Source: a virus
UHGV virus genome: UHGV-0141345
DNA: 16,168 nt
Reading direction: 5' to 3' (one strand)
Below are positions 1 through 12,578 of this stretch, in pieces (the first letter of the stretch is position 1; the number at the start of each line of letters is the position of its first letter). The position numbers were made by a program, and so were the translations under genes. The notes under the pieces are model-generated. The model saw nothing but the letters and a program-made list of their open reading frames with translations, was not told where the DNA came from and did not search any database.

Positions 1-51
1 AGCTGTATCGGGTGATGAGTGGTATCTGTCAGGGAATTACGTGGGGGCTTA

Positions 52-705
52 ATGAGTAATAAATATTGCCAGGAGCTGGTGGAACTGCGGAACAAACCAG
101 CCCATGAACTGAAGGAAGTGGGTGATCAGTGGCGCACGCCGGACAACATTTTCTGGGGAATTAACACCCTGTTTGGCCCGTTTGTTCTGGATCTGTTCAC
201 TGACGGTGATAACGCCAAATGTGCCGCGTATTACACGGCGGAAGACAACGCGCTGGCGCATGACTGGTCAGAACGCCTTGCGGAGCTTAAAGGTGCTGCC
301 TTTGGTAATCCTCCATACAGCCGCGCCAGTCAGCATGAAGGGCAATACATCACCGGCATGCGTTACATCATGAAACATGCCAGTGCCATGCGTGATAAGG
401 GCGGGCGCTATGTTTTCCTGATCAAAGCTGCCACCAGCGAAGTGTGGTGGCCGGAAGATGCGGACCATATTGCTTTTATTCGCGGGCGTATTGGTTTTGA
501 ACTGCCTGCCTGGTTTATCCCGAAGGACGAGAAGCAGGTGCCGACAGGAGCTTTTTTCGCTGGTGCTATTGCTGTTTTTGACAAGACCTGGAAGGGACCG
601 GCAATCAGCTACATCGGGCGCGATGAACTTGAGGCATGTGGTGAGGCCTTTCTGGCGCAGGTTCGCCAGCAGGCAGAAAAACTTGTCAGGGAGATGGCGG
701 CATGA
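52..705 (+). CDS. Phage-type DNA N6-adenine methyltransferase (Dam family, PF05869-like)
   Basis: ORF 19..705; I place the start at ATG 52 (G-rich stretch 43-47 upstream), but GTG 19 directly after an in-frame TGA at 16-18 is possible. NPPY catalytic motif (FGNPPYS) and the W-TP ... LD ... GR-GF pattern typical of phage Dam proteins found in lambdoid nin regions. Stop overlaps the next start (ATGA at 702-705). Confidence 0.85.
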   Translation: MSNKYCQELVELRNKPAHELKEVGDQWRTPDNIFWGINTLFGPFVLDLFTDGDNAKCAAYYTAEDNALAHDWSERLAELKGAAFGNPPYSRASQHEGQYITGMRYIMKHASAMRDKGGRYVFLIKAATSEVWWPEDADHIAFIRGRIGFELPAWFIPKDEKQVPTGAFFAGAIAVFDKTWKGPAISYIGRDELEACGEAFLAQVRQQAEKLVREMAA

Positions 706-1028
706 CGACGTTAACTCAATGCCAGCAGCAGGTGCTGGATATGCTGATTTCTTACCAGAAAGAACGTGGCTTTCCGCCAACCAATCAGGAGGTGGCAACC
801 ATGCTGGGATACCGTTCAGTGAATGCAGCGGTGGAGCATCTTCGCGCACTGGAGAAAAAAGGCGTCATCACGATAAAGCGTGGCGTGGCCCGGGGGATCA
901 CGCTTCATACCGCAGTGAAGGACGACGACAGCGAAGCGGTCGGTATCATCCGCGCACTGCTTGCCGGTGAGGAGAACGCCAGGCTGCGTGCAGCCCACTG
1001 GTTACATGAGAGGGGCCTGAAAGTATGA
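702..1028 (+). CDS. LexA N-terminal DNA-binding domain protein (winged HTH) lacking the S24 peptidase domain
   Basis: 108 aa. Residues ~4-68 align well by eye with the E. coli LexA N-terminal domain (PPT-EIA--LG-RS-NAA-EHL-AL--KGVI-I--G--RGI-L). A linker-like 'LLAGEE' resembles the LexA 'VAAGEP' cleavage-site region, but there is no downstream catalytic domain. ATGA overlaps at both ends (702-705 and 1025-1028). Confidence 0.8.
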   Translation: MTTLTQCQQQVLDMLISYQKERGFPPTNQEVATMLGYRSVNAAVEHLRALEKKGVITIKRGVARGITLHTAVKDDDSEAVGIIRALLAGEENARLRAAHWLHERGLKV

Positions 1029-1414
1029 AGTTGATCCTTCCTTTCCCGCCCAGTGTGAACACGTACTGGCGACACCCCAACAAAGGGGCATTTGCTGGTA
1101 AGAGCCTGATAAGCGAGGCGGGGCGAAAATTTCAGAGCGCGGCGTGCGCAGCAATAGTTGAGCAGTTACGTCGTCTGCCGAAACCAACGTCGGCACCTGC
1201 TTCAGTGGAGATCGTGTTGTTTCCTCCGGATAACCGGATCCGCGATCTGGACAACTATAACAAGGCTCTGTTTGACGCCCTGACCCACGCGGGTGTGTGG
1301 GAAGACGACAGACAGGTGAAAAGAATGCTGGTGGAGTGGGGACCGGTTATCCCGAAAGGGAAGGTCGAGATCACTATCAGTAAGTATGAGAAACCGGCGG
1401 GTGCAGCCGCCTGA
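1025..1414 (+). CDS. rusA: Holliday-junction resolvase RusA (crossover junction endodeoxyribonuclease)
   Basis: 129 aa; RusA-family pattern (PPS-N-YWRH, DLDNY-KA-FDALT-AGVW-DD-QV). Start overlaps the upstream stop. Usual nin-region position upstream of Q. Confidence 0.85.
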   Translation: MKLILPFPPSVNTYWRHPNKGAFAGKSLISEAGRKFQSAACAAIVEQLRRLPKPTSAPASVEIVLFPPDNRIRDLDNYNKALFDALTHAGVWEDDRQVKRMLVEWGPVIPKGKVEITISKYEKPAGAAA

Positions 1415-1433
1415 TTAAGAGGAGAAACGAAGT

Positions 1434-2243
1434 ATGAATAATCTGATGGTCATTGATGGTATTGAAGTTCGTCGTGATGCTTATGGGCGTTACAGCCTGA
1501 ACGATCTGCATCGCGCAGCAGTAGCATCTGGTGCAAATGCCAGAACCAAGGAGCCAGGAAAGTTTCTTTCCAGCCAACAAACTGTTGAGCTTGTTCATGA
1601 ATTGACCAACACCCAGAATTTGGGTGTTGACCCGGTGAGTGTGATTCATGGGGGAAATGAACGGGGAACGTATGTCTGCAAGGAACTGGTGTATGCCTAT
1701 GCAATGTGGATCAGCCCGTCATTCCATCTGAAGGTGATCCGTACTTTCGACATGGTAACCAGCGCACCGGAAAAATTATCCGGACAGGCTGCTGACAAGA
1801 TGCAGGCTGGTGTGATTCTGCTGGACTTTATGCGCCGGGAATTAAACCTGTCTAACTCTTCAGTGCTTGGTGCCTGTCAGAAACTCCAGGAGGCTGTTGG
1901 CTTACCGAATCTGGCACCGCGCTATGCCATTGATGCTCCTGCTGACGCGCCTGATGGCTCAAGTCGTCCTACGCTGTCGCTGAGTGCACTGCTGAAACAG
2001 TATGGTATCCGCCTTACGGCTAATCAGGCATATCACCAGATGGCGAAGCTGGGGATCGTTGAACAACGCGAACGATACAGCCGTACCGCGATTAACAACA
2101 TCAAAAAATTCTGGTCGCTGACAGCGAAAGGTTGCATGTTCGGCAAGAACATCACCAGTCCCGCAAATCCGCGCGAGACGCAGCCGCATTTCTTCGAATC
2201 CCGATTCCCTGAGCTGTTAAAGCTGCTCGATACCGTTCATTGA
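1434..2243 (+). CDS. KilA-N domain protein with antirepressor-like (KilAC/ANT-type) C-terminal region
   Basis: 269 aa. Strong SD (AAGAGGAGA) 7 nt upstream of the ATG. N-terminus shows KilA-N hallmarks (YSLNDLHRA, GGNERGTYVCKELVYAYAMWISPSF). C-terminal half resembles an antirepressor KilAC/ANT domain. Confidence 0.8.
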   Translation: MNNLMVIDGIEVRRDAYGRYSLNDLHRAAVASGANARTKEPGKFLSSQQTVELVHELTNTQNLGVDPVSVIHGGNERGTYVCKELVYAYAMWISPSFHLKVIRTFDMVTSAPEKLSGQAADKMQAGVILLDFMRRELNLSNSSVLGACQKLQEAVGLPNLAPRYAIDAPADAPDGSSRPTLSLSALLKQYGIRLTANQAYHQMAKLGIVEQRERYSRTAINNIKKFWSLTAKGCMFGKNITSPANPRETQPHFFESRFPELLKLLDTVH

Positions 2244-2244
2244 G

Positions 2245-3240
2245 GTGACCGTGAGAGCACTACTGACCCCTGAAATTGCCCCGCGTATGGGGATCGTATT
2301 GTTCAGGCCAGGTTCAGAGCTGATGCCCCTGTTTATGCAGGGGCGTGTCCTGCTGGAGCCTGAGCCGGAACGTTATTCATCTTTCGCCAGTGGTGCCGTT
2401 CCGGCGGCATCACAACCGCTGGCGGATGATCCTGCCGTTCGGGCCGTGTTCCGCAATGAGGAAGTGATCCGTCGTGCTGGTGGCGTGGAATGTCTTGAAA
2501 GCTGGTTACTTCGTGAAAAAGGCTGCCAGTGGCCTCATTCCGACTGGCACAGCGAGAACATGACAACAATGCGACACGCGCCGGGCGCAATCCGTCTGTG
2601 CTGGCACTGCGATAACCAGCTGCGCGATCAGTTCACGGAACGGCTGGAATCAATGGCAACGGATAACTGTGCCCGCTGGGTGTTGTCTGTTGTGCGTCGG
2701 GATCTCGGTTTTGATGATAGTCACGTTGTGACAATGCCGGAACTGTGCTGGTGGCTGATTCGTAATGACCTGGCGGATGCCTTACCGGAAAGTGCAGCCC
2801 GTAAGGCACTGAGATTACCGAAGCCTGTTGTGCCGTCTGTCACCCGGGAAAGTGACCTTGTGCCTTCGGTTCCTGCCACCAGCATCATCCAGGATAAGGC
2901 GAAAAAGGTGCTGGCGCTGAAAGTGGATCCGGAGTCGCCGGAGTCTTTTATGTTACGCCCAAAACGTCGCCGCTGGGTTAATGAAAAGTACACACGCTGG
3001 GTTAAGACACAGCCGTGTGCATGTTGTGGAAAGCCTGCTGATGATCCCCACCACCTGATAGGCCACGGTCAGGGGGGAATGGGTACAAAAGCGCATGACC
3101 TCTTTGTGTTGCCTTTGTGCAGAAAGCATCACGACGAGCTGCATGCGGATACCGTGGCATTTGAAGAGAAGTATGGCTCCCAGCTGGAGCTGATATTTCG
3201 TTTTATCGATCGTGCGCTGGCAATTGGCGTGCTGGCCTGA
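2245..3240 (+). CDS. DUF968-like phage protein with C-terminal Cys/His (HNH-like) metal-binding cluster
   Basis: 331 aa ORF starting at GTG 2245 directly after the upstream stop; start uncertain (in-frame ATG at 2287). C-terminal CACCGKP...HHLIGHG...H[12 protein letters not shown] motif. Sits immediately upstream of Q, as DUF968 genes do in E. coli lambdoid prophages. Confidence 0.7.
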
Positions 3241-3257
3241 TTTTGTGGAGAACGTTG

Positions 3258-3623
3258 ATGCGTGATATTCAAATGGTTCTTGAACGTTGGGGGGCATGGG
3301 TGGCAAATAATCACGAGGATGTCACCTGGTCGTCTATTGCTGCAGGATTTAAAGGACTAATCCCTTCAAAAGTAAAATCCCGCCCGCAATGTTGTGACGA
3401 TGATGCGATGATCATTTGTGGGTGCATGGCTCGCCTGAAAAAGAACAACAGCGATTTGCACGATTTATTAGTGGATTATTATGTAGGTGGTATGACGTTT
3501 ATGGCGCTTGCCCGTAAACATGGGCGTTCTGATTGCTGGGTTGGGCGTTTATTGCAAAAGGCTGAAGGTGTAGTTGATGGCATGTTAATGATGTTAGAAA
3601 TTGAGCTAGAGATGGATCGTTAG
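3258..3623 (+). CDS. Late-gene antitermination protein Q (short Q-like, Phage_antitermQ family, QuuD-type)
   Basis: Start at ATG 3258 with GGAG 7 nt upstream (the track ORF begins at TTG 3243). 121 aa with Cys-rich segment ([16 protein letters not shown]). Position immediately upstream of the lysis region. Confidence 0.8.
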
Positions 3624-3665
3624 AAGACCTCTTATTGAGGGGGTAATTGAATCAGTTTAATGTGT

Positions 3666-3700
3666 GGGGAGTCGATTTATTCTCCCCATTTTATTTAATT
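3666..3700 (+). terminator. Putative rho-independent terminator downstream of Q
   Basis: Stem GGGGAG (3666-3671) / CTCCCC (3682-3687) with 10-nt loop, followed by ATTTTATTTAATT. The tail is U-rich only on the + strand. Lies between convergent genes Q (+) and the lipoprotein gene (-). Confidence 0.4.
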
Positions 3701-3707
3701 AATTTAC

Positions 3708-4154
3708 TTAAGGTTTTAATTCATCAAGACGTTGTTGGATAGTGTTTTTGCTTGCGTTGTCTGTTATAGCCATTTGTTGTACTTGCCCCATTGCCATTTG
3801 AGTTTCCATCCACATATCGGCCCACACTTTTGTATCGTTATTAACTTGAGCGATAGTAAATCTGACTTTTGATACCGGGGTTGTTGAATAGGCATTGCCG
3901 ATTAACATTTGTCCAAAAACAGCAGAGCCGCCTTCCAGTTCTTTACCACATATAACACTGCTGTTATCCGCGTTGTAAATTATCAACCCTCTACTATTGC
4001 AGTAATTCACAAGGGCATCTTTGACTTTATCTTTTGTCATATTTTGATAAACCCCCTCAGGTTTTCCTGATTGAGTTTTCTTTATCAATGGTACGGAAGA
4101 AGTACAACCTGAAATGATAGTTGCGCTAAGTAATAGTACAGTCATTTTATTCAT
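3708..4154 (-). CDS. Hypothetical lipoprotein (accessory gene convergent with Q)
   Basis: 148 aa. N-terminus MNKMTVLLLSATIISGC has a signal peptide and lipobox (ISG|C). The gene and surroundings are visibly AT-rich relative to flanking phage genes. No family recognised. Confidence 0.65.
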   Translation of the reverse strand: MNKMTVLLLSATIISGCTSSVPLIKKTQSGKPEGVYQNMTKDKVKDALVNYCNSRGLIIYNADNSSVICGKELEGGSAVFGQMLIGNAYSTTPVSKVRFTIAQVNNDTKVWADMWMETQMAMGQVQQMAITDNASKNTIQQRLDELKP

Positions 4155-4182
4155 GTTTCTTATCCATTGTTAAGGGCATACC

Positions 4183-4216
4183 CACACAATTATTTTTATT
4201 GGAGATGAATAATCAA
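4183..4216 (-). promoter_or_regulatory. Candidate sigma70 promoter for the lipoprotein gene
   Basis: On the - strand: -35 TTGATT (complement of 4211-4216), 16-bp spacer, -10 AATAAT (complement of 4189-4194), about 30 nt upstream of the ATG at 4154. Prediction by eye only. Confidence 0.3.
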
Positions 4217-4277
4217 CCGTTTACAATCGTAAAAAATCAAATATGCTGTTAAGAGTGGTTACTTCGCCACACAACTT

Positions 4278-4302
4278 AAACCCGCCGCTGAGCGGTTTTT
4301 TT
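4278..4302 (+). terminator. Putative rho-independent terminator (possibly tR'-like)
   Basis: Short GC stem CCGC(4285-4288)/GCGG(4292-4295) with 3-nt loop followed by T7 (4296-4302). Weak stem, strong U-tract. Confidence 0.35.
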
Positions 4303-4424
4303 GTACCTGTAAACTTGGTGCAGTACAGTAAACACGCTGGTGGTCGTGAATACTGACTTTTTATCTTGCTGGCTTTTTAGACAAGAGTTATTGGTATGTC
4401 ATGTTAACCAGAAGGGGAAAAGAC

Positions 4425-4628
4425 ATGCTAAAACAGCAAGATATGACAGAAACCGCCGCCGCAGTCCTTCATTTCTTACCTGCTGACAAGTGGGTAACGC
4501 CACGCATGATGACGAGAACTACCGGAGTAAGCGAAGCCCGGTGCCAGTTAATACTGACCCAGTTAGTTCTGGCGGGTCTGGCGAAGGGTAACGGCGGGTA
4601 CGGGAATAAATTCAGACGCTGCCAGTAA
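4425..4628 (+). CDS. Small winged-helix DNA-binding protein, tentatively FaeA/PapI-like
   Basis: 67 aa from ATG 4425, with SD-like AAGGGGA (4412-4418) 6 nt upstream (track ORF begins at ATG 4401, which lacks an SD). Pattern VLHFL...VT...GVSEAR-QLILTQLVLAGLA...GG resembles small wHTH regulators of the PapI/FaeA type. Assignment from pattern memory only. Confidence 0.45.
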   Translation: MLKQQDMTETAAAVLHFLPADKWVTPRMMTRTTGVSEARCQLILTQLVLAGLAKGNGGYGNKFRRCQ

Positions 4629-4778
4629 TGGCGGTTTCCTGCTGTGAAAATGGGCGGCTGGTGGGTGTTGGTAGCACCTGCCAGCCATTCGCTCATGCTT
4701 ACTGGTCACAAGCGAACCACGGCCCACTGCTTTAGCGCAAAAGCAGAGTGAGCCTACCAGAGTTACGCTTACTGATCC

Positions 4779-5831
4779 ATGAAAAACACTGTAAAAATAA
4801 ACAGTGTTGATTTAATCAACGCTGATTGCCTGCATTTTATTCAGTCCCTGCCTGATGATTCCATTGACCTGATTGTTACCGATCCGCCGTACTTCAAGGT
4901 GAAACCCAACGGCTGGGACAATCAGTGGAAAGGGGACGAAGATTACCTTAAGTGGCTGGATCACTGTCTGGCCCAGTTCTGGCGGGTGTTAAAACCTGCT
5001 GGAAGCCTTTACCTGTTCTGTGGGCATCGCCTGGCATCTGATATTGAGATCATGATGCGTGAACGTTTCAACGTGCTTAACCATATCATCTGGGCGAAGC
5101 CGTCCGGACGTTGGAATGGGTGTAATAAAGAAAGTCTGCGCGCATATTTTCCTGCCACAGAGCGCGTTCTGTTTGCTGAACATTACCAGGGGCCATATCG
5201 CGGCAAAAGTGACGGCTATGCGGCAAAAGAAAGGGAACTCAAACAGCACATAATGGCACCGCTGATATCGTATTTCAGGGATGCTCGTGCCGAACTGGGT
5301 ATAACGGCAAAACAAATTGCCGAAGCCACAGGTAAGAAAAATATGGTTTCCCACTGGTTTGGTGCCAGTCAGTGGCAGTTGCCGAATGAGGCTGACTATC
5401 GGAAGTTACAGGCACTGTTTTCCCGTATAGCGGCAGAGAAGTTTCAGGAACAACAACTGGAACAACCACACCACCAGCTGGTGGCATCTTATGATTCACT
5501 GAATCGCAAATATTCTGAATTGCTGGATGAGTTTAAATCTCTCCGGCGCTATTTCTCCGTATCAGTCTCCGTGCCTTATACCGATGTCTGGACGCATAAG
5601 CCCGTTCAGTTCTACCCGGGTAAACATCCGTGCGAGAAACCGGCGGATATGCTCCGGCAAATAATCAATGCCAGTAGTCGACCTGGTGATCTGGTTGCTG
5701 ATTTCTTTATGGGATCCGGTTCCACAATAAAAGCGGCAATGGCGCTGGGGCGTCAGGCGTTAGGTGTTGAACTTGAGTCAGAGCGGTTTAATCAGACGGT
5801 GAAAGAGGTAAGTGAACTGGTGGGGAAATAA
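4779..5831 (+). CDS. Beta-class DNA amino-methyltransferase (N6_N4_Mtase-like; probably N6-adenine), orphan
   Basis: 350 aa. Motif IV DPPY near the N-terminus (TDPPYF) and motif I FxGSGST near the C-terminus (FFMGSGSTIKAA), the beta-class order with a central target-recognition region. DPPY rather than SPPF favours N6-adenine. No restriction endonuclease gene is adjacent. Confidence 0.85.
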   Translation: MKNTVKINSVDLINADCLHFIQSLPDDSIDLIVTDPPYFKVKPNGWDNQWKGDEDYLKWLDHCLAQFWRVLKPAGSLYLFCGHRLASDIEIMMRERFNVLNHIIWAKPSGRWNGCNKESLRAYFPATERVLFAEHYQGPYRGKSDGYAAKERELKQHIMAPLISYFRDARAELGITAKQIAEATGKKNMVSHWFGASQWQLPNEADYRKLQALFSRIAAEKFQEQQLEQPHHQLVASYDSLNRKYSELLDEFKSLRRYFSVSVSVPYTDVWTHKPVQFYPGKHPCEKPADMLRQIINASSRPGDLVADFFMGSGSTIKAAMALGRQALGVELESERFNQTVKEVSELVGK

Positions 5832-5836
5832 TTCTG

Positions 5837-5864
5837 GTGGCCACGTTGCGTGGCCTTTTTATTT
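5837..5864 (+). terminator. Rho-independent terminator after the methyltransferase
   Basis: Perfect 7-bp stem GGCCACG (5839-5845) / CGTGGCC (5849-5855) with loop TTG, followed by TTTTTATTT. Confidence 0.6.
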
Positions 5865-5907
5865 CCAACACAGCACCCGCAAATATCGCGAGGTGAGAGA
5901 TGACGAA

Positions 5908-6243
5908 ATGCCTCATAACCCAAATACATGGCCGGACTGGCTGGAGTTGTTTCAGAGCTGGTGGCGTGGAGACACACCGCTTGGTGCAGTGATTATGTCG
6001 ATCGTTATGGCTGGTTTGCGCATCGCCTATTTTGGCGGTGGTGGTGGCTGGAAGCGAAAAACGCTCGAGATTTTGCTATGTGGCGCTCTGACGCTGACCT
6101 TTGCATCCGCTCTTGAGTATGTCGGATGGCCTAAATCGCTTTCTGTTGCCATTGGTGGTGGCGTGGGGCTGATCGGTGTCGATGCTATTCGTGGGGCTGC
6201 AATGCGAGTAATCGGTAACAAATTTGGTAGCTCGAAGGAGTAA
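5908..6243 (+). CDS. S: Holin, lambda S family (class I)
   Basis: 111 aa from ATG 5908 with SD AGGTGAGAG (5891-5899). The C-terminal two-thirds resemble lambda S (AY-G---GG-----T-------C; SL-VAIGGGVGLIGVDAI). The N-terminus differs from lambda S and has no Met-Lys-Met dual-start motif. Directly precedes R. Confidence 0.8.
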   Translation: MPHNPNTWPDWLELFQSWWRGDTPLGAVIMSIVMAGLRIAYFGGGGGWKRKTLEILLCGALTLTFASALEYVGWPKSLSVAIGGGVGLIGVDAIRGAAMRVIGNKFGSSKE

Positions 6244-6246
6244 TTT

Positions 6247-6723
6247 ATGCAGGCACTAAATTCCCAGCGTAAAGCTTTCCTGGATATGGTGGCATGGTCA
6301 GAAGGAACGGATAACGGACGGCAGAAAACCAGAAATCATGGTTATGACGTCATTGTAGGCGGAGAGCTATTTACTGATTACTCCGATCACCCTCGCAAGC
6401 TTGTCACGCTAAACCCCAAACTCAAATCAACAGCAGCCGGACGTTATCAGCTTCTTTCACGCTGGTGGGATGCTTACCGTAAGCAGCTTGGCCTGAAAGA
6501 CTTCTCCCCCAAAAGCCAGGACGCAGTGGCATTGCAGCAGATTAAAGAACGTGGCGCTTTACCGATGATTGATCGCGGTGATATCCGTCAGGCAATCGAC
6601 CGTTGCAGCAATATCTGGGCTTCACTGCCGGGGGCTGGTTATGGTCAGTTCGAGCATAAGGCTGACAACCTGATTGCAAAATTCAAAGAAGCTGGCGGAA
6701 TGGTCAGAGAGATTGAGGTATGA
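6247..6723 (+). CDS. R: Endolysin R (lytic transglycosylase), near-identical to lambda R
   Basis: 158 aa; from residue ~5 onward matches my recollection of lambda R almost exactly ([46 protein letters not shown]...). SD AAGGAG upstream. Confidence 0.95.
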
Positions 6724-7157
6724 GCAGAGTAACCGCGATTATCTCCGCTCTGGTTATCTGCATCATCGTCTGCCTGTCGTGGGCGGTCAATCATTACCGT
6801 GATAACGCCATGACCTACAAAGAGCAGCGCGATAAAGCCACATCCATCATCGCTGATATGCAGAAGCGTCAACGTGATGTAGCAGAACTCGACGCCAGAT
6901 ACACAAAGGAGCTTGCTGATGCTAACGCGACTATCGAAAGTCTCCGTGCTGATGTTTCTGCTGGTCGTAAGCGCCTGCAAGTCGCCGCCACCTGTGCAAA
7001 GTCAACGACCGGAGCCAGCGGCATGGGCGATGGAGAAAGCCCAAGACTTACAGCAGATGCTGAACTCAATTATTACCGTCTCCGAAGTGGAATCGACAAG
7101 ATAACCGCGCAGGTTAACTACCTGCAGGAGTACATCAGGACGCAATGCCTGAAATAA
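6720..7157 (+). CDS. Rz: Spanin inner-membrane subunit Rz
   Basis: 145 aa; N-terminus [30 protein letters not shown] matches lambda Rz. Start overlaps the R stop (ATGA). Confidence 0.9.
6919..7104 (+). CDS. Rz1: Spanin outer-membrane lipoprotein Rz1, embedded in the +1 frame of Rz
   Basis: 61 aa from ATG 6919. Signal peptide with lipobox (VVSAC) followed by a Pro-rich segment ([13 protein letters not shown]). Entirely nested inside Rz, as in lambda. Confidence 0.75.
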
Positions 7158-7188
7158 TTTTTTTGCAAATCACAAAGTCAATTTAATG

Positions 7189-7211
7189 AGCCTCGCGATG
7201 CGGGGCTTTTT
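7189..7211 (+). terminator. Rho-independent terminator downstream of Rz/Rz1
   Basis: 8-bp stem AGCCTCGC (7189-7196) / GCGGGGCT (7200-7207) with one G-U pair, loop GAT, followed by TTTT. Confidence 0.5.
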
Positions 7212-7895: not shown

Positions 7896-8139
7896 GTAAG
7901 AGCAGGCATTACAGCAGCCCTTCACTGAGGGGCTGCGATAATGTGAGGAATAAAAAACCGGCAGGGGAAATCCATTGAAGATTTGCCGGTGGCAAAAGAT
8001 GGCCATGCTTTTAACCTTAGTAGCAGAGCTACGGAGTTCAACAACGACCGTCGCCGTTATCTTGCTGAAAGGCGTTTCAATGATTTTCATCAATTTATTC
8101 ATCAGCAATGGTGATAATCACTCTCATTTTGGCGGGTCC

Positions 8140-8330
8140 TTCCGGTGGGGTGGCCTGCCACGGGGCGGAAGGCGCGCAGGTTTTCGCTATTTATGAAAAT
8201 TTTCCGGTTTAAGGCGTTTCCGTTCTTCTTCGCCGTAACTTAATGTTTTTATTTAAAACACCCCCTGAAAAGAAAGGAAACGACAGGTGCTGAAAACGGG
8301 CTTTTTGGCCTCTGTCGTTTCCTTTCTCTG
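8140..8330. other. cos region: cosN-equivalent (~8163-8174) and cosB with R3, R2/R1 terminase-binding repeats
   Basis: The segment GGTTTTCGCTATTTATGAAAATTTTCCGGTTTAAGGCGTTTCCGTTCTTCTTCG...AAAGGAAACGACAG...CTGTCGTTTCCTTTCTCTG matches my memory of the lambda left end, ending at the Nu1 start codon. Perfect 15-bp inverted repeat GAAAGGAAACGACAG (8272-8286) / CTGTCGTTTCCTTTC (8312-8326) corresponds to R2/R1. The 12-mer at the cosN position is GGGCGGAAGGCG, not canonical GGGCGGCGACCT. Confidence 0.75.
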
Positions 8331-8351
8331 TTTTTGTCCGTGGAATGAACA

Positions 8352-8871
8352 ATGGAAGTCAACAAAAAGCAGCTGGCTGACATTTTCGGTGCGAGTATCC
8401 GTACCATTCAGAACTGGCAGGAGCAGGGAATGCCCGTTCTGCGAGGCGGTGGGAAGGGTAATGAGGTGCTTTATGACTCTGCCGCCGTCATAAAATGGTA
8501 TGCCGAAAGGGATGCTGAAATTGAGAACGAAAAGCTGCGCCGGGAAGTTGAAGAACTGCGGCAGGCCAGCGAGACAGATCTGCAGCCAGGGACTATTGAG
8601 TACGAACGCCATCGACTTACGCGTGCGCAGGCCGACGCACAGGAGCTGAAGAATGCCAGAGACTCCGCTGAAGTGGTGGAAACCGCATTCTGTACTTTCG
8701 TGCTGTCGCGGATCGCAGGTGAAATTGCCAGTATTCTCGACGGGATCCCCCTGTCGGTGCAGCGGCGTTTTCCGGAACTGGAAAACCGACATGTTGATTT
8801 CCTGAAATGGGATATCATCAAAGCCATGAACAAAGCAGCCGCGCTGGATGAACTGATACCGGGGTTGCTGA

Positions 8872-8897
<26 letters not shown>
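8352..8897 (+). CDS. Nu1: Terminase small subunit Nu1
   Basis: 181 aa; essentially identical to lambda gpNu1 as I recall it (MEVNKKQLADIFGASIRTIQNWQEQGMPVLRGGGKGNEVLYDSAAVIKWYAERD...). Confidence 0.97.

Positions 8898-12578
<3,681 letters not shown>

Follow-up and report, generated by a model that had tools for sequence, protein, structure and literature searches.

A probably functional natural cosN allele with a changed right half in the lambda-like cos of a lambdoid prophage

The window, by which we mean the whole 16,168-nucleotide stretch analyzed here (UHGV virus genome UHGV-0141345), is the late region of a lambdoid prophage. From left to right it encodes a Dam-type methylase, a LexA-like protein, RusA, a KilA-N protein, DUF968 and Q, followed by an N6/N4 methylase, holin, endolysin, Rz and a KilA-N/ORF11CD3 protein, then cos, and beyond cos Nu1, A, W, B, C, D, E, FI and FII. 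Homology to lambda begins only at about position 8112, with 97.1% identity to the deposited lambda record over 8112-10979 and sequence unrelated to lambda upstream. Phage PhiR46_1 matches the window from 8111 to its end at 97.6% identity (cos through the head genes), and a prophage of E. coli EFF60 matches from 3236 to the end at 99.95% identity. The annotation of this near-identical EFF60 prophage has the head genes Nu1 through FII at full length and an IS1 upstream of Q, and because of that IS1 individual prophage copies may be decaying for reasons unrelated to cosN. Upstream of 3236 the two diverge, such that EFF60 (1-4136) carries the IS1, adjoining Q, together with yfdP/Q/R-like genes, and window positions 1-3235 hold the Dam, LexA-like, RusA, KilA-N and DUF968 genes instead. 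The interval between Q and holin, a position held in related phages by stx or other morons, contains a small ORF and the N6/N4 DNA methyltransferase, which is one of two methyltransferases in the window, the other being the Dam-type methylase (Table 1).

Table 1. Positions of the cos elements, terminase genes and selected other genes in the window.
Feature	Position	Strand	Remark
Dam-type methylase	19-705		
148-aa ORF	3708-4154	-	Q-holin interval; without Pfam match
N6/N4 DNA methyltransferase, 350 aa	4779-5831	+	Q-holin interval
cosQ, GGGTCCT (packaging-termination signal)	8134-8140	+	identical to lambda cosQ
cosQ-cosN spacer, TCCGGTGGGGTGGCCTGCCACG, 22 bp	8141-8162	+	aligned to lambda (23 bp)
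cosN core (CG flank, 12-bp cohesive end, CG flank)	8161-8176		
CG flanks of the predicted nicks	8161-8162 and 8175-8176		
Predicted top-strand nick	8162/8163		by homology with lambda
Predicted bottom-strand nick	8174/8175		by homology with lambda
Cohesive-end sequence, GGGCGGAAGGCG	8163-8174	+	
Cohesive-end bp 1-6, GGGCGG	8163-8168	+	same as lambda
Cohesive-end bp 7-12, AAGGCG	8169-8174	+	bp 7, 8, 9, 10 and 12 changed relative to lambda
CGCAG, then GTTTTCGCTATTTATGAAAATTTTCC	8175-8179 (CGCAG)	+	
bp 16 G>A	8178	+	rare variant just outside the 16-bp cosN
cosB overall	8212-8326	+	by alignment
cosB R3	8212-8227	+	exact lambda match
cosB IHF site I1	8236-8258	+	exact lambda match
cosB R2 (inverted)	8272-8286		exact lambda match
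cosB R1	8312-8326	+	exact lambda match
Nu1 (TerS), 181 aa	8352-8897	+	Pfam Phage_Nu1, E = 2e-100
A (TerL, gpA), 641 aa	8872-10797	+	

The site is built as a lambda-like cos, with identity to the lambda cohesive end at 7 of 12 positions, CG dinucleotides flanking both predicted nicks, a cosQ upstream, and a complex cosB accompanied by TerS and TerL genes. The four cosB elements (R3-I1-R2-R1), whose roles are described in PMC4669245 and PMC9026076, keep the positions and spacing that they have in lambda. The cosQ sequence, which served as the fixed anchor of our search patterns, lies in the same register across all related cos sites, and the motif CG^NG is kept in both nick contexts. Counted from the left end, Nu1 starts at bp 190, and A comes next.

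To describe how this cos departs from lambda, we relied on an alignment to lambda from the database record. The cohesive ends differ at 5 of 12 positions, with bp 11 being C in both, and these five substitutions within 8169-8174 are accompanied by the single one at 8178 and by nine in a 12-bp patch of the spacer (8148-8159). The spacer also has a T run 1 bp shorter than that of lambda and is without lambda's GATC site. The changed patches are separated by invariant ACG/GGGCGG and CGC, and the sequence is identical to lambda from bp 18 onward, such that the two sites share cosQ, the CG flanks, bp 1-6, bp 11, bp 13-15 and bp 17 onward, and differ in bp 7-10 and 12, bp 16, and the length and sequence of the spacer. 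The predicted overhang Tm is 51 C in the window vs 53 C in lambda, with a G+C content of 10/12 in both.

This alignment revises part of an earlier sequence-only reading of the same DNA. That reading quoted the cos sequence of the window exactly (8134-8179) and gave a lambda core, CCGGTGATCCGACAGGTTACG GGGCGGCGACCT CGCGG, that agrees with the deposited record, and it described cosB, Nu1 and A as lambda-like, which is borne out by the exact cosB elements and by a gpA that differs at only 3 of 641 residues. It was also right that GGGCGG is conserved and that the right half of the 12-nt core is changed, but it counted 6 of 12 differences where there are 5, bp 11 being kept. Its single replacement of about 40 bp resolves into two separate variable patches plus bp 16, split by the invariant ACG/GGGCGG, and the left flank that it gave as lambda, CTCTCATTTTGGCGGGTCCTT, reads ATCATTATCACTTTACGGGTCCTTT in lambda, only cosQ and some 20 bp of looser similarity preceding it being common to both. 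A 1-bp cosB deletion relative to lambda was considered and rejected, as it is absent in the alignment to the deposited record. Separately, about 3-20 bp upstream of cosQ (8112-8131) lies a motif containing TGATAATCA, which is partly kept across the otherwise different cos left flanks of the window, lambda, PhiR46_1 and Stx1 phages; its lambda counterpart is a near-perfect palindrome, TGATAATCATTATCA, which we take to resemble a Fur-box-like sequence.

The terminase genes next to this changed cohesive end are close to those of lambda. [quoted passage not shown] Judged from these sequences, gpA and Nu1 are under strong purifying selection.

Natural cosN sequences were reportedly surveyed by Vahanian et al. 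2017. According to Feiss et al. 2015, differences at bp 7-12 are common among lambda-like phages, with cosN differing at bp 9 and 12 in N15 and phiD326 and at bp 8, 9 and 11 in Gifsy-1, whereas bp 1-6, the nick-flanking CG dinucleotides and cosQ are conserved (PMC4669245). A further cosN variant, GGGCGGCGCGCT, is known from mEp213 and LLS (PMC12315714). In the experimental work of Feiss et al. many right-half mutations had minimal phenotypes and the symmetric left-half mutations were severe (G2C lowered yield about 10-fold, C11G had no effect), an asymmetry ascribed to TerS at R3 anchoring TerL for bottom-strand nicking, and lambda and N15-hybrid terminases displayed no cosN specificity (PMC4669245). 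The right half of cosN is thus described as unread by TerL and naturally variable, which removes the ground on which the changed core had been called unexpected beside a near-identical gpA (PMC4669245).

Set against these systems, the window is alike in where it changes and different in how much. As in N15, phiD326, Gifsy-1 and mEp213/LLS, its changes within the cohesive end fall in the right half only, with the left half, CG flanks and cosQ kept. Unlike the variants of the Feiss laboratory, it has 5 of 6 right-half positions changed at once, and its TerL is essentially lambda's own, whereas theirs are relatives of about 65% identity. The mismatch test from that laboratory covered only 2 of 12 positions, which were tolerated with reduced yield (PMC4669245). 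The right-half divergence in the window exceeds the cases with readable experimental data (5 vs 2-3 changes), yet it is anticipated by existing genetics. Going by the sequence comparison, the window follows the published cosN rule exactly, in that all constrained elements are unchanged and all changes sit at positions described as unconstrained, and the cosN variant would be an ordinary polymorphism whose right-half changes lie only at positions reported as unread by the enzyme.

The same overhang, GGGCGGAAGGCG, is also present in PhiR46_1, YDC107_1, E. coli 504239, E. coli EFF60 and Escherichia sp. E1V33. Both PhiR46_1 (PV340565) and YDC107_1 (CP025712) pair it with a lambda-type cosB, and PhiR46_1 departs from the window in its 23-bp lambda-like spacer and in having G at bp 16. 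Its annotation is that of an N15-like linear-plasmid prophage (telL/telR, ParAB), and its record names a heterologous propagation host (ECOR13), holds full lambda-type head and tail genes, and is written in the prophage (telomere) permutation, so virion ends are not documented there. A literature search for a paper describing PhiR46_1 or ECOR-derived phages found none, and a search with the exact 12-mer returned a single match, an unrelated plant paper.

Beyond these named relatives, a targeted IMG/VR scan gave 86 contigs with the AAGGCG core, 82-83 of them in a genuine cos context, and the AAGGCG cos contigs differed among themselves, with no fewer than 25 spacer variants and cosB/TerS of three types. 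Among the matches listed, 120 lambda-type IMG/VR cos sites had bp 7-12 alleles CGACCT (109), AAGGCG (8, or 6.7%), CAGCGG (2) and CGACCG (1), with at least 23 spacer alleles and 7 spacers of 22 bp. To locate variation along the site, 200 IMG/VR cos sites anchored solely on cosQ and bp 19-34 were pooled; this pool was enriched for AAGGCG by the targeted scan and is not readable as allele frequencies. Across the pool, bp -3 to +5 were invariant, bp 6 nearly so, bp 7-10 and 12 variable, and bp 11 and 13-16 nearly invariant. At bp 16 all 200 sites had G, where the window has A, a base also present in E. coli EFF60, a Kluyvera georgiana prophage and one IMG/VR contig.

The elements of these sites also combine in several ways. 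The spacer allele of the window occurs with a lambda-type overhang in E. coli ETEC1738, with a CAGCGG overhang (GGGCGGCAGCGG) in E. coli RM8082 and EC11, and with a GAGCGT overhang (GGGCGGGAGCGT) in E. coli Br_190_kylling, where a DUF1441 TerS module lies downstream. The RM8082/EC11 and Br_190_kylling sites have the same cosQ, 22-bp spacer and GGGCGG as the window, but differ from it in the right half and in the downstream cosB and terminase modules. Because one spacer allele occurs with the lambda, CAGCGG and GAGCGT overhangs, spacer, right half and cosB reassort freely. In several E. coli prophages homology to the lysis-to-cosQ region of the window ends inside cosN, at 8168 or 8176, and in Br_190_kylling (10150-10260) GGGCGG is followed by GAGCGT-CGCGG, an unrelated cosB, the DUF1441 TerS and a different TerL. 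Since homology stops at these positions and Br_190_kylling switches module there, the middle of the cohesive end, at the conserved GGGCGG, is a junction of modules that separates the 'termination' half of cos from the 'initiation' half.

Three further observations concern other records. In IMGVR_UViG_2645728091_000007 (3676-7204), which has the AAGGCG overhang, AlpA is followed by cos, a divergent Nu1-like protein of 183 aa, a 91-aa ORF, an oppositely oriented Abi_C and a gpE that is truncated. The arrangement resembles that of a cos-type satellite (PICI, Rpp-like), or else of a prophage that has undergone deletion, and the cosB type of this contig, one of the three linked to AAGGCG, occurs in 4 IMG/VR contigs. 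A 56-kb metagenomic viral contig (IMGVR_UViG_3300045988_113976) has two AAGGCG cos sites in opposite orientation, which could reflect adjacent elements or a chimeric assembly. Lambda cos fragments of about 400 bp (99.3-99.8% identity) with no other lambda sequence are present in Raphidiopsis brookii D9, Aeromicrobium sp. PE09-221 and an Alicyclobacillus fastidiosus plasmid, and are most likely the cos cassette of a cosmid or fosmid vector left in the assemblies.

Our preferred reading, to which we assign a probability of roughly 85%, is that the cos in the window is a working cos of a lambda-like prophage with a natural cosN allele. Viability of the allele is inferred from the propagation host named in the PhiR46_1 record and from purifying selection. 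A functional alternative cosN was among the options raised from the sequence, and it gains support from the distribution of the same overhang, which is carried by deposited phages and by numerous independent prophages whose packaging genes are intact and under purifying selection. In the mechanism that we propose from lambda genetics, TerS (Nu1) would bind R3, R2 and R1 of cosB and IHF would bind I1, and this assembly would hold TerL (gpA) at a fixed distance and in register. TerL would then cut between bp 12 and 13 on the bottom strand and immediately 5' of bp 1 on the top strand, leaving a 12-nt 5' overhang, 5'-GGGCGGAAGGCG. The TerS-R3 anchor, and not recognition of the bases, would set the position of the bottom-strand nick, so that bp 7-12 would be free to vary, and constraint would rest on bp 1-6, the CG flanks and cosQ, all of which are unchanged in the window. 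The altered overhang would be self-complementary and need no change of enzyme, because both chromosome ends derive from one duplex cos. The central part of the cosQ-cosN spacer is likewise hypervariable in nature.

Among the alternatives, the one that survives best, though we consider it quite improbable, is that this is a packaging-defective cos in a decaying cryptic prophage, where nicking is abolished or misplaced as a result of the right-half changes, of bp 16 G>A or of a spacer that is 1 bp shorter. It draws on the absence of A at bp 16 from the pooled IMG/VR sites, on the IS1 near Q in the EFF60 sister prophage, and on the finding that, among IMG/VR contigs, used as a proxy for virion ends, none begins at the predicted left end beyond internal sites. 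Yet AAGGCG overhangs are found repeatedly, as are 22-bp spacers, in many independent elements whose terminase genes are intact, the allele is present in a deposited, propagated phage, A at bp 16 recurs in the Kluyvera prophage, and both the strong purifying selection on gpA and Nu1 and the published mutation tolerance of the right half (PMC4669245) count against decay. The packaging-defective option of the sequence-only reading is also unsupported by the site itself, where cosQ, both CG flanks and bp 1-6 are intact, as are R3-I1-R2-R1 and the distances between them.

Highly improbable, in our estimate, is a co-evolved specificity switch, in which the terminase of this lineage was altered to recognize the new right half and cosN formed a new specificity class. 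The candidate change would be gpA R50H, which is private to the window and EFF60, but the other five AAGGCG carriers all have R at that position. We compared 36 full-length gpA sequences of 641 aa, of which 7 accompany AAGGCG and the remaining 29 CGACCT or CGACCG, and among these 36 no gpA column separated AAGGCG carriers from the rest; at 98.8-99.5% identity to the gpA of the window, AAGGCG and CGACCT carriers were instead mixed with one another. The lambda overhang is moreover used with TerLs of only about 66% identity, and the published tests that found no cosN specificity (PMC4669245) likewise speak against a switch. Of equally slight probability is a non-functional scar, left where illegitimate recombination or repair acted on the cohesive ends, or else an error of assembly, since even though the arrest of homology at 8168 or 8176 in other E. 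coli prophages marks cosN as a mosaic junction, those junctions join alternative intact alleles and create no damage, the cos elements with a known requirement are all intact, length and register are exactly preserved save in the spacer, whose length recurs as an allele elsewhere, and the same sequence recurs in many independent assemblies, which refutes restriction to one lineage.

Returning to a functional natural allele, we considered whether the right-half alleles (CGACCT, AAGGCG, CAGCGG/GAGCGT) are discrete cohesive-end compatibility types that act as a partial exchange barrier between co-infecting lambdoid phages and cos satellites, an idea that we hold tentatively and judge unlikely, though less so than the alternatives above. 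If it were true, a chromosome cut from a hybrid concatemer, running from a lambda-type cos to an AAGGCG cos, would have ends in which 5 of 12 contiguous-block positions do not pair, and would be expected not to cyclize, and the right-half alleles might be maintained as such a barrier. The idea is consistent with the lack of intermediates between CGACCT and AAGGCG, none of which was seen in about 200 IMG/VR cos sites.

In practical terms, annotation and end-prediction tools that seek GGGCGGCGACCT will miss about 7% of lambda-type cos sites (the share among the matches listed), and DNA of AAGGCG phages would not be expected to anneal to lambda cohesive ends. As it is already on record that cosN bp 7-12 vary in nature and tolerate mutation, the allele itself has little discovery value. 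It does offer a natural experiment of modest value, in which a near-lambda terminase goes with an overhang that has 5 of 6 right-half positions altered, and this pairing supports placement of the bottom-strand nick by the TerS-R3 anchor rather than by base recognition.
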